DNA of 64,000 nt from Eledone cirrhosa. Taxonomy: Eukaryota. Position 1 is the first letter of the stretch, and each line of letters begins with the position of its first letter. A model generated the notes under the pieces. The model was not told the DNA's origin. It saw only the letters and a list, made by a program, of their open reading frames with translations, and searched no databases. The stretch spans positions 48,050,001 through 48,114,000 of the forward strand of contig OZ024746.1 of the NCBI GenBank assembly GCA_964016885.1. The letters are read 5' to 3'. The position numbers and the translations under genes are program-made. Below, piece by piece: positions 23,492 through 35,915 of the stretch.

Positions 23492-23671
23492 CTGATGCAT
23501 GATGAATACTTGCTAAAGAAATGTTGCTATCACTTGATTGATGATTTGGATGTTTTTCTTTCTCTCCATCTGCTTGCATAGAGCTTGATGAAGCAAAAGT
23601 TTCCAGTGCTGTACTTAATCTATCGTCAGAGCTGGTTTGAGATATTTTTCGAAAAAAATGAGAAATGGTAC
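23492..23671 (-). CDS. NCX: NCX CBD2 F-G loop cassette exon, paralogue 3 (180 nt, 60 aa)
   Basis: gcatgttctattctag|GTACC ... GCATCAG|gtcagt; phase 1-1 and open. GTISHFFRKISQTSSDDRLSTALETFASSSSMQADGEKEKHPNHQSSDSNISLASIHHAS; similar to the exons at 29489 and 35745. Confidence 0.8.
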
Positions 23672-26600
23672 CTAGAATAGAACATGCGGTATACATTGAC
23701 AGATCAATATCATTTAGTCCCCATCTTTCTCATGAAATAATAGTGCTTAGCTGTGCTGTTTCCAGTGAGTGCCTATACAATCTACAATACACACATTTCA
23801 ACATTTTGGTTTAATAACTACTAATTATGTTTTACTTTAAGTAAATTGAAATTTTCGTATAATATATATATTTTAGCTAGATGATTTAGCTTTCAAGGTG
23901 TATCCAGTTAAGAATAGATACACTAAATCCCTTCATGTCATAACAGGCGATTAAAAGAAGGTGTTAGGAAGAGCATCTGGCCGTAAAGCATTGCTTCAAA
24001 ATGGACCCCATGATGATGTTGAAACTTATCATAGAACTTGGAAAATAGCCTTAAAATGGTTGCTGCTGTTCTTAATTAATCTTGTTAATATATAACCAAA
24101 ATATTTATTTAGTGATGCTCTATTCTTTACTATCAAATAAAGAACCTAAAATTATATATTCATTTTGTAAAGTTATTTTGAATAGTTTATTCAAAATATC
24201 AGTGTTCAGAATTTATGAAGCATATTTCTCTGAAATAATTCTAACAAAAACTAATAGTTTAGCAAAACATAACAAAAGCAGCAGAATATTTTGAAAAGAA
24301 TGTTCAGCTACCTTGCTGTGCTTCGTATCAACTGAACTGAACTGATTAATTCAATAAGATTTTGGATAATTTTCAAATGGTAAGAATAATGAAAAAGAGT
24401 GCATTTAAAAAAAAAAAAAGAAAATGTCAATTGAAATATTTTCAATGCTATCGCAGATAGTTTGCATTGCAGTCAGGCTGGACAAAGGCATTTCTTTTAC
24501 AGATATTTGGCACCAATACACATATTAAAGGTGAAAATATGGCAATACGGAATGTTGAATTCTTAATGATAGATTTAAAGTCAAGAGAATTGAAATGATG
24601 GAGGTTTCAGTATGAAACTGTTTGCAAATATTGTCACCATCATCAATATATATGTATTTTCATAATGCATTGACTGTAAATTACTAAAACCTAATATAGG
24701 TTGAATTATTTCCATCTTTTTCACAAAAATAACATCGCAATTATCACAATCGATAGCACTCATAATATTCTTTTGGAAATTGGATTACTATAGAACGATG
24801 GATAAGCAGAATCATTAAAGAATTGAAGAAAATGTATTTAGTAAAATCTCTATATTCTAGGTTCAAATCTTGCCTGAATCAGCTATGCTTTCACACTGTT
24901 GAGGTCAACTATGCTTCATCCTGTCAAAGGTTTTAACCTCCAATGCTGGGTGACACATGGTACCATAAGAATGATCTCCCCTTAATAGATAATGCAGTGT
25001 CAAGAGAAGCAACTCATAAAAATCACTAGCATACTAAAGGTTAAAAAAGTTGAACATATAATCAACTCTTCTTTCCCATCTCCAAAAAGAGATCAATAGA
25101 GTTGATCACTTGTTTACCGATGCCTCTGATCACTAACATATCAAGTAATTGACTGACTATTTATCCACAACGGTATGTGGATCAATAAATAGTAATAAAT
25201 CTATATCTTACAATTGTAAAGAATCCATAAAACACTGATGGCTGAGTTCTATTTAAAGATCAATAAATGTGTAATGTAACTAAGTGAACATGGTTTACAC
25301 ATTTATATCGCAATATAGATAAATTTTATCATGACAAAAATTTAGTTTCTCACAATCTAGCTAGATATATTTTAGGCTGTAGAGAGTTGAACAACCTTGT
25401 GGTAGTTGTAAGATTGACCACTTAACATAAATGCTATTGATTAGAATAAGTAGCTTTCGAGTCAATTTCAAGAGAAAACTTAGTGGAAATCTTTTATTAG
25501 CACATAAGGCCTACTCTGTCTTCTACCTTCCATCTCTATTTTAAGTCACTTTTTTATAATTCAAGACAATAATAAAGCTTCTAAACAGTTGCCTAACCTG
25601 ATAAAAATAACAGCTAAATATTCTTCAATTCACATCCTACTGTTTAAAAGAAAGGAAGGTCACATTGTTCAGTATTGTCCTAGATATACATCAGGAATGC
25701 TTTTGACAAGTCTGCTTAATCCAAGCTGACCTGAGCTCAAACAACATCAAGAATAATTTGTTTTCTATTACAATTTTCCTTAAACCTCTCCTTGTTTCGT
25801 ACATTTCATGACTATGTGGCATTTTTAGGTTTTCTACTTTCACTGTATCTCAAAACTATTACCTATGTTAACAAGGAAACCTCTACAATATTGCTTGAAT
25901 TGCAAAGAATAGCAACCAAATCTCTTTCATATACTTAGTTTAAAAATAAAAAAAGGGTACAAAGGATAATATAGCCCAAGCTGCACTATACCTAAAGAAA
26001 AACACAGAAGAAGGTCATAGATAAGAAAGCCTTTCAGTTTAAGCATCAATAACAACAATAGCTGCTCCCATTTCCACCACCACATCCTATGCATTTCTAT
26101 CACCTTTACATAACAATCATGTCTAATTTAGGCACAAGGACAGCAACATTGGTGGGGGGGGGGGACAAAGGGCAAAGTTGATTACATCAACCCTAGTAAT
26201 TGACAGGTGATTTATTTTACTGATCCTGGAAGCAAAGCTGACTTCAATGGAGATTGAACTCAGAACAAAGAGCAAGAAAAAATACTGCAATGGCATTTTA
26301 TTCAATGCTCTAACCAATTCACCATCCTACCTTTCCATAATAATGGACGATATTGTGATGATTGTCCAGAAATAACTCTATGGTAATGTGCAAATGGATG
26401 GATAAATGCAGCAGGCATCTGCCATTATATCACACATTATTTCCTTGCTTTGCTTGTAAATGACTAATCTACAAAATAGTTGCTGGCAGACTACAAGAAT
26501 AAACACTAACTTACATAAACTGTTTTAACCTTGGTACGGCTGCAAAAGAACAATTATTAATTTTCCCTCTCTCCCGACCAAGCCTCACCCTATACGCTAG

Positions 26601-26794
26601 TTTTTTTATCACATGATATCAGTGCTCATGTAGAACATCATCACAAACTAAATGCTATCTATGGACATACTTTATATAGTTTATCAATAGAAGAGACATA
26701 TAAAAGAGAAAAAAATTGATCCAGATTAGTCTTGCTAAGAGAGAACTGAAATGAATGAATCTATCTATCTTCCTTTCCAATTCAATGATCATTA

Positions 26795-26973
26795 TTGGCA
26801 GTATCGGTAGAGGGTCGGACGCCATGCTTTGATGTATAGAGTTACGGCCCTTGCTATTCTGAGTTCAAATCCCGCCGAGGTTAACTTTGCCTTTCATCCT
26901 TACGGGGTCGATAAAATAAAGTACCAGTAATGTACTGGGTAATTTCTGGCCTTGTGCCAATAGTAGAAACAAT
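26795..26973 (+). mobile_element. Nin-domain SINE copy
   Basis: Near-consensus sequence. Confidence 0.85.
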
Positions 26974-34055: not shown

Positions 34056-34760
34056 GCAAATAAATACTCAACACAGTTGTATGCTACCTAAGGTTTCAAA
34101 GTCTACTCTAGGATAAGTATTAGTGTTGCTTATCTTCCAGGCAATACCAAGATGGATGACGTTATTAACACGAGATCTCATCACGTGCAAAGTAAGTAAT
34201 CGTAATGTAATAAACATTGTATTTTTGTTATTCCGGGGTATCAAATGATGTGTCAGTAAATTGTGTTTTTTTATTATCAAGGTATAGTTTTTGTGCGTGT
34301 GTGTATATATTTATGTTTATATTATTAATAAATGTGGAGTGTGATATGTGTTTTGTTAAAGGTGTATGTGTTATTTATAAAGCTTAATGTATCTAGCCTC
34401 TTCGTTCCTTTAATGTAAGGGTACGACCTATCCAGAATGTTCCATTTAATCGTGTATGGTATACTTCATATTTCAGTTTGCATACACGATTTGCCAGTGT
34501 TGTGGCTGTCCTAAATTCCTGGTGCCGAAAGGACATGATATATAAGTTGTACTGTTCTTTAAACCGATCCTGTGTCATACCCACATATTGTTCTCTGTTC
34601 ACTGTATGGATCGTTGTAAGTGGTGTGATGGTAGCTTCATATATGACCATATAGGAACAAAGATGAATGCCCTTTGCAATATATACGATCTCTAAGACCT
34701 ATGCTAGAGTAGACTTTGCAACCTCAGGTAGTATGCAACTGTGTTGAGAATTTATTTATA
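34056..34760 (-). mobile_element. Penelope-like element: GIY-YIG fragment between inverted pseudo-LTRs
   Basis: ORF 34393-34650 reads VIYEATI..QYVGMTQDRFKEQYNLYIMSFRH..TATTLANRV. About 34058-34125 is inverted at about 34693-34760. Confidence 0.8.
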
Positions 34761-35744
34761 GTAATATACTTTAGCTCTGCACATAACAGAGCACTTTTTC
34801 TTTTATGTAGTCTATGGAAACGCTTGACAGCCGGATGGCTGGAACAGGTAAAAGAGTGTATATATATATATATATATATATATATATATATATATATATA
34901 TATATATATATACACACACACACACACACATATATATATATATATATATATATACATATATATATATATAGTGTATGTGTGAGTGTGTAAATAAAATATT
35001 AAATGAAGCAAGAATATAATTGATTTACACGCTGACAATACAATATATGCAGGACAGTAGGGAAAGAATGAGACTACTTTAAAGCTCTGCTATTACTTAG
35101 ATTCATTTATTAGTGATATCTTGCTGAAAGGATTGGAGTTAGATAACAGGACTGGGAAAGGTAATTGCATAAATATAAAGGGTGCTCAGATACCTACCTA
35201 GAAAAAACTAAAAACTAGTGTTAGTGGTGATGGTGCTTGTGTAAATAAAAACCACTCAATTACATGCTATTTATATTATGTAAATACATATACTTTGAAT
35301 GATGTTGAAAAATTGATTTCTAAGTGGGGCTAACTTAAGCAAAACAATGATTAAGGCCAAGTTCCTTCCAGTTAAAAATAAGGAGTAGCAGAGTTCTACA
35401 TTATTTTTTTTTACTTTATGTATAATATTTATTTTACTAATGTTAAATAGTGAGTCTTGTTGCTCTGGAGTTTCAAACAGATGAAACTCCAGAGCCAGAA
35501 TAACAAGACTCACTATTTAGTCTTTATGAAATAAATATTTAAACTACCCCAGTATTGAGTACTCTTTTCTCTCACCTGTCAACTATATATGGGTATATAT
35601 ATGGATATATACTATTTCATTGAGACAATGCATTGCTTCTCAATTGTGCATCACACTTTAGATATGTAAAAAAAACAAAAAACAAAGGAGAATTCCTTCC
35701 TAAAATCTATGTGACTGTTGGCTTTGGTGACAGTTATAACTGAC

Positions 35745-35915
35745 CTGACACACGTTGTCGAATAGGCTCATTGCTTGCAGAGGTTGAACTGCCAAAGTAC
35801 TGCCTTTCAATTAGAGGAATCATATTGGGGTTGACTGTTCCAGAATGTACTGAGACGTTTGTCTCATCCAAGAAACAGTTGACATCACATTCTTCAAAAT
35901 AGTGTGATATAGAAC
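35745..35915 (-). CDS. NCX: NCX CBD2 F-G loop cassette exon, paralogue 1 (171 nt, 57 aa)
   Basis: ttgcatgctgtttttag|GTTCT ... GTGTCAG|gtcagt; phase 1-1 and open. GSISHYFEECDVNCFLDETNVSVHSGTVNPNMIPLIERQYFGSSTSASNEPIRQRVS. Confidence 0.78.

Follow-up and report, generated by a model that had tools for sequence, protein, structure and literature searches.

The F-G loop of CBD2 is an established tuning site of Na+/Ca2+ exchangers (NCX, SLC8), where five residues can switch regulation. The accessible text of PMC9820601 places both the NCX1 cassettes C-F and the five variant residues of CALX in this loop, and reports that the NCX1 cassettes there alter Ca2+ affinity and off-rate. CBD2 forms an inactivation assembly, according to the available part of PMC10550945. 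For cephalopods, the accessible sections of PMC2217150 give a difference of only 47 residues at this loop between squid NCX-SQ1 and NCX1.1, and the available portion of PMC2408596 treats invertebrate NCX without exons such as those reported here. We analysed a window of 64,000 nucleotides from Eledone cirrhosa (G000:C6:48,050,001-48,114,000; contig OZ024746.1), in which the NCX gene holds three mutually similar exons, A, B and C, at this site. Coordinates without Mb or the prefix C6 are positions in the window. Our reading is that the exons are probably an old tandem-duplicated trio, likely spliced all-or-none, which adds a predicted disordered Ser/Thr-rich loop that would retune the exchanger, most likely through RKIS sites. 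We give this reading a probability of roughly 0.58.

The gene was identified as an NCX by two Calx-beta domains lying in order, on a single strand, between Na_Ca_ex repeats. It extends over both flanks of the window on the minus strand. An exon of 580 codons (580 residues) lies at C6 48.338-48.340 Mb, the CBD2 exon equivalent to exon A/B was found in one copy upstream of the window (C6 48,159,102-203), and the last transmembrane exon lies on the other flank at C6 47.925 Mb. Since the NCX exons span 48.340 to 47.925 Mb, the gene covers about 415 kb. The encoded protein shares 94-95% identity with Octopus NCX and 91% with that of Argonauta, and the tree groups Eledone NCX with octopods (support 100/100).

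Within the window all NCX exons are on the minus strand, in the order M, A, B, C, a closing exon (12757-12636) and a next exon (9560-9461). Exon A (35745-35915; 171 nt, 57 codons) is the most diverged copy, with EECDV in place of the RKISQ of B and C. Exon B (29489-29680; 192 nt, 64 codons) reads TMSTLLRKISQ...QRMS and exon C (23492-23671; 180 nt, 60 codons) TISHFFRKISQ...HHAS. The constitutive exon that closes the CBD2 F-G loop (12636-12757; …EEDDPVLIELGKPRRGENIKITVHITESTEFK) and the next constitutive NCX exon (9461-9560; SVVDKLLKKANLSLVVSTSSWREQFIEAITVNA) were located by tblastn and their boundaries. Introns measure 9091 nt (M-A), 6064 nt (A-B), 5817 nt (B-C) and 10734 nt (C to the closing exon). 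Each of A, B and C is bounded by AG and GT, is open, has phase 1-1 and ends in a TCAG/gtcag donor; their lengths are divisible by three, so they preserve the frame, and they are skippable, as database isoforms exist with and without them. In size, phase and donor the trio agrees with the initial annotation, which had reported three such exons of 171, 192 and 180 nt about 6 kb apart; the peptides it quoted are all in place on the minus strand. It had set the trio just upstream of the closing exon, which is right as to order but not distance, the closing exon lying 10.7 kb away beyond the last of these introns. The acidic motif that it gave as E-x-E-K-[DE]-K-H is indeed shared, although the correct form is [DE]-x-E-K-[DE]-K-H, exon C having D-G-E-K-E-K-H; the His of exon C is Gln in both Octopus orthologues. 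The placement in the F-G loop holds, as seen from the exon order, the alignment to human NCX1 and the strands of a structural model (597-603 and 830-837) on either side of the insert.

The initial annotation listed A, B and C but missed M, a phase-1 microexon of 21 nt ahead of the block (45007-45027, minus strand; DTDSAHS), found by tblastn with Octopus isoforms and bounded by AG and GT. M is used alternatively in octopus and decapodiform proteins, and always in models holding the three-exon block. DTDS/DSDS segments after KKGS in gastropod proteins resemble it, and M may be ancestral in molluscs.

A, B and C are very probably real coding exons. Between microexon M and the closing exon we counted 94 open phase-1 intervals of 150-210 nt bounded by AG and GT, and among these the TCAG/GTCAG donor is found only in A, B, C and a variant of A extended by 27 nt. 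Of the four minus-strand occurrences of the 9-mer in the window, three are the donors of A, B and C. Since the constitutive exon 9560-9461 also has a CAG/gtcag donor, the specificity resides only in the TCAG/GTCAG 9-mer. Frame, phase and splice sites are retained in all three copies despite a synonymous divergence (dS) near 1. A neutral-decay simulation gave a joint probability of 1e-3 to 1e-5 for this at 0.15-0.35 substitutions per site and copy, under a simple model with an assumed 1/9 length term.

The RefSeq models of O. sinensis and O. bimaculoides hold all three exons, with 150/178 and 151/178 identical residues respectively (84-85%). Identity is 48/56 and 49/56 for exon A, 52/63 and 53/63 for exon B, and 50/59 and 49/59 for exon C. 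Both proteins carry the trio in frame. It is very improbable that A, B and C are pseudoexons or an annotation artefact, never translated. Such an origin would fit the lack of transcriptome-derived proteins with the insert, but frames, phase and splice sites persist over three paralogues and three species, and two annotations use the same boundaries. Three sequencing runs from one sample matched exon B, none of them recorded as RNA. Since their contigs cross exon-intron borders unbroken in window positions 12600-24300 and show huge repeat depth, they are low-coverage genomic data, and no splice joint is visible in them.

At exon A we also observed a stronger-looking pyrimidine tract and a CAG 29 nt 5' of the acceptor (35916-35944, minus strand). 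Use of this site would give a frameshifted exon of 200 nt with an early stop. An AG 27 nt 5' of the acceptor would give an open form of 198 nt.

The sequences argue that A, B and C very probably arose by tandem duplication, as the initial annotation had proposed. Paralogy was scored against shuffled sequences. B and C are clear paralogues (protein z 6.1 global and 6.9 local; DNA z 6.7), A and B are likely ones (5.0 and 3.1; DNA 5.9), and the pair A-C is weak (2.4 and 1.4; DNA 2.8). These neighbouring exons are homologous in frame and have the same phase and splice context. A profile search of 114 kb recovered exactly three copies and no fourth, and the flanking introns could not be aligned in register. 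In a loose first look at the genome, with B and C as queries and A not queried alone, each matched only itself. Since dS between paralogues is about 0.9-1.0, the duplication is old.

The use of the exons was read from database models. The O. sinensis RefSeq isoforms examined, X1-X6, have 1092, 1091, 910, 909, 903 and 902 residues. X1 and X2 join M+A+B+C to the closing exon and X3-X6 are without A, B and C; none of the six is partial. RefSeq numbers isoforms by falling length. Since X1-X6 are numbered gaplessly in this order, an isoform with one or two of the exons would fall between X2 and X3. In O. bimaculoides, X1 contains M+A+B+C followed by seven intron codons, X2 and X3 contain none of the trio, and X4 stops earlier and is uninformative. 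The RefSeq pipeline derives alternative isoforms from aligned transcripts, and we infer that these models mirror real junction reads and tissue-specific use. On this basis A+B+C are probably used all-or-none, as one block of about 181 residues.

The initial annotation had proposed mutually exclusive or additive use, with inserts of 57-181 residues. Because the models of both Octopus species join A to B and B to C, strict mutual exclusion is excluded, if the models are right. Judged on database models rather than reads, the trio is thus not a mutually exclusive cluster of the NCX1 A/B or Dscam type, with one variant per mRNA; none of the six O. sinensis isoforms has a single exon. That A, B and C could be independent or mutually exclusive cassettes is unlikely overall. 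With their symmetric phase and lengths in multiples of three they could be combined in any way, duplicated exons often serve as substitutes for each other, and minor skipping junctions can escape models built on short reads. However, partial models number 0/6 in O. sinensis and 0/3 among the informative ones of O. bimaculoides. Moreover, we found no exclusivity device among those checked (very short intron, mixed spliceosomes, selector): the introns are GT-AG and about 6 kb long, no frame penalty applies, and the 300-nt regions upstream of A, B and C have no 7-mer in common.

The end of O. bimaculoides X1 raises another alternative, that the exchanger is chiefly made in a truncated form ending in the intron after C, without CBD2 strand G and the C-terminal transmembrane half. 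This model (808 residues) ends in GQFKVKF after exon C, and reading through the exon C donor of Eledone (23469-23491, minus strand) gives GQFMADF and a stop at the same codon position, with A[AT]TAAA hexamers 320 and 450 nt downstream. However, the shared early stop is anticipated because the introns are homologous, and such hexamers are common in DNA of 33% GC. O. sinensis X1 and X2 splice C to the closing exon at full length, and none of the O. bimaculoides models reaches the C-terminal half, pointing to a break in the assembly or annotation. We consider truncation a slightly poorer candidate still than independent cassettes.

The exons are lineage-restricted and far larger than known cassettes, as first noted, although the scope is narrower than the cephalopods at large that had been suggested: Octopus proteins alone were found to carry the insert, and all ten full-length squid/cuttlefish-type proteins are without it (proteins only, the decapodiform genomes being outside the search). 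A homologue search over residues 620-805 found it in 1 of 626 near-length candidates, the Octopus cluster, and in 0 of 383 shorter ones. A profile search of 1.84 billion representative proteins returned one match, the same cluster. Among 156 pattern matches in JGI metagenomes none carries the insert, the ESM Atlas gave no usable match to it, and in Pfam the A, B and C peptides have nothing above cut-off. The longest loop closed by our search pattern is 111 residues outside Octopus, versus 254 in Octopus. In the accessible text of PMC2217150, reverse-transcription PCR on squid optic lobe and stellate ganglion yielded no variant in nine clones. Microexon M is common to octopods and decapodiforms; at the same loop, bivalves carry small cassettes of their own. 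We also observed that bivalve and other mollusc-like NCX proteins (P0082-P0084, P0019, P0095, P0047) have small additive inserts of their own in the F-G loop, several of which add basic-basic-x-S/T motifs (RRKT, RRES, KRDS).

The insert has 181 residues in Eledone (57+64+60 codons) and 182 in O. sinensis, where 29% are Ser or Thr, 21 are acidic and 17 basic. It is predicted to be disordered. In the AlphaFold2 model of P0124, residues 611-818 have a predicted local distance difference test score (pLDDT) below 50, mostly 21-29 by blocks, and no secondary structure. This stretch lies between strand 597-603 and helix 816-821/strand 830-837, and the CBD2 strands flanking the insert reach a pLDDT of about 70-87.

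Conservation in the insert is highest at RKISQ, close to the beginning of B and C and invariant in 6/6 B/C sequences; exon A has EECD at the RKIS position. By the PKA/CaMKII-type consensus definitions, RKIS is a basic-basic-x-Ser site, here in a loop that its predicted disorder would leave accessible. A related motif, [RK][RK]GS, ends the upstream exon in 34/40 non-cephalopod rows versus 0/21 cephalopod rows, counted over lophotrochozoan proteins of 650 or more residues spanning the site, with isoforms included and the rows thus non-independent. At this site decapodiforms have KKPT, Argonauta KKSS, Octopus proteins KKP(A) and the Eledone genome KKPV. From this comparison, only the block-bearing lineage is without Ser/Thr there. 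Scallop P0098 has KRGS (618-621) where the F-G loop starts, and we take this to be the PKA site Ser621 reported as demonstrated for the muscle NCX in the Hardwicke-lab papers.

We propose the following mechanism. Tandem duplication of one exon inside the CBD2 F-G loop would have produced A, B and C. M+A+B+C would then be spliced in together, or A/B/C all skipped, yielding an exchanger with or without a loop of about 181 residues. Such a long loop beside the CBD1-CBD2 interface would affect how Ca2+ activates or Na+ inactivates the exchanger, which is what small cassettes do at this position in NCX1 and CALX. RKIS in B and C would provide candidate kinase sites, replacing in switchable form the constitutive [RK][RK]GS upstream. 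Since RKIS lies in skippable exons, the upstream motif is lost and the insert is predicted to be disordered, we hypothesize a splice-switchable phospho-regulatory loop. By analogy with those cassettes, it is fairly likely that the insert has some regulatory effect; that the kinase-type sites are its working part is, from sequence, doubtful. It is tempting to go further and speculate that the octopus lineage lost a constitutive phospho-acceptor at the loop start and regained control by kinases through exon triplication, now in the form of a splice switch, with RKIS in two copies, a charge-reversed third with Asp at the Ser position, and joint inclusion over 12 kb as a 181-residue module. Each tissue would then set the kinase sensitivity of its exchanger. 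We regard this larger scenario as rather improbable.

Several observations weigh against our reading. Joint inclusion is read from automated RefSeq models. In none of those for O. bimaculoides is C connected to the closing exon, X1 ending in the intron, and the single O. vulgaris and single Argonauta models are without the insert. The search of Logan, a weak negative, found no transcriptome-derived protein that carries it. The P0124 model is poor overall (mean pLDDT 50.6; predicted template modelling score 0.34). Ser-rich sequence often contains RKxS motifs, exon A has none, and the coincidence of upstream-site loss and cassette gain is one evolutionary event only. The ratio of non-synonymous divergence (dN) to dS over whole exons is about 0.76 for B-C and about 0.9 for A-B. 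A protein-only neutrality test on the orthologues gave P(no stop) of 0.24-0.30, and at the protein level the substitutions between them are not more conservative than expected under neutrality (mean BLOSUM -0.39/-0.44 versus -0.34 to -0.30).

These values suit the idea of a near-neutral disordered insert that some tissue truly splices in and that is tolerated, selection keeping the frame only. The constitutive part of the F-G loop is variable too, and loop length varies widely among molluscs. However, the orthologue identity of the block (84-85%) is no lower than that of the first 40 constitutive residues (75%), and RKISQ is retained over two old paralogues and three species. In the first 13 codons, a stretch picked post hoc, B and C differ by a dN of 0.23 and a dS of 1.1. 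In the accessible text of PMC9820601, moreover, a five-residue difference here alters how CALX is regulated. A near-neutral insert is unlikely, though less so than the other alternatives, and we prefer a jointly spliced, regulatory block.

The insert would test whether a phospho-site in the F-G loop can regulate the exchanger directly. In the sections of PMC2217150 available, the squid cloning work left kinase-linked regulation of the cephalopod exchanger open. As a natural insert of 181 residues, about four times the difference between squid and NCX1.1, the block also tests the tolerance of the CBD1-CBD2 interface. The duplicated exons apparently also enter the transcript together, as one unit over long introns, and do not replace each other. 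Our search of the open literature found no description of exons A-C, most subscription papers and supplements being outside its scope. The exons are, however, already within automated RefSeq annotation. What we report is therefore an undescribed variant of a known splice site and not unseen sequence; since splicing at this site is also well known, its value is moderated.

The window also holds other features. An open frame of 577 residues in an NCX intron (57039-58769, minus strand) matches PIF1 helicase and STPR and is likely a Helitron-type element. Reverse-transcriptase (RVT_1) open frames at 55026-56186 and 63098-64000, both on the minus strand, are likely fragments of long interspersed nuclear elements. 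There is a gap of 200 N at 62898-63097, and the intron after the closing exon contains a 104-bp tandem duplication (11450-11660; two copies, 94%). Elsewhere in the genome, further NCX-like genes lie at C1:286.37-286.44 Mb, C1:292.73-293.01 Mb and C13:1.24 Mb, with about 40-58% identity in exon matches. They are intron-split, and two of them share a contig in opposite orientations.

Among known systems, the closest likeness is to cassettes C-F of vertebrate NCX1 (SLC8A1). They occupy the same unfolded part of the F-G loop after the exon-A/B segment and are additive and frame-preserving (accessible text of PMC9820601; PDB alignment). However, they are small and combinatorial, whereas the octopus block has 181 residues, consists of mutually homologous exons and is apparently used all-or-none. 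Unlike C-F, it has no detected similarity to non-octopus proteins. The CDEF part of NCX1 is a subdomain, according to the available part of PMC10550945, whereas the octopus insert is predicted to be disordered. Exons A/B of vertebrate NCX1 and NCX3 are likewise duplicated exons in the CBD2 of an NCX gene, but they encode strands of the Ca2+ site and substitute for each other, while the octopus duplicates lie downstream of a single A/B equivalent and are joined in series. Drosophila CALX1.1/1.2 also vary by splicing in the F-G loop with a change in regulation, in the accessible text of PMC9820601, although over five residues versus 181 in octopus. Other mollusc cassettes (Mercenaria X1-X3, +15/+23 residues; the 7-residue cephalopod microexon) occupy the same site and are additive in database isoforms, but are far shorter than the octopus block and not homologous to A/B/C. 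Finally, scallop KRGS at the loop start resembles RKIS of B and C as a basic-basic-x-Ser motif, RKIS standing a few residues further on. The scallop motif is in a constitutive exon, whereas octopus RKIS, a candidate phospho-site, lies in exons that can be skipped.

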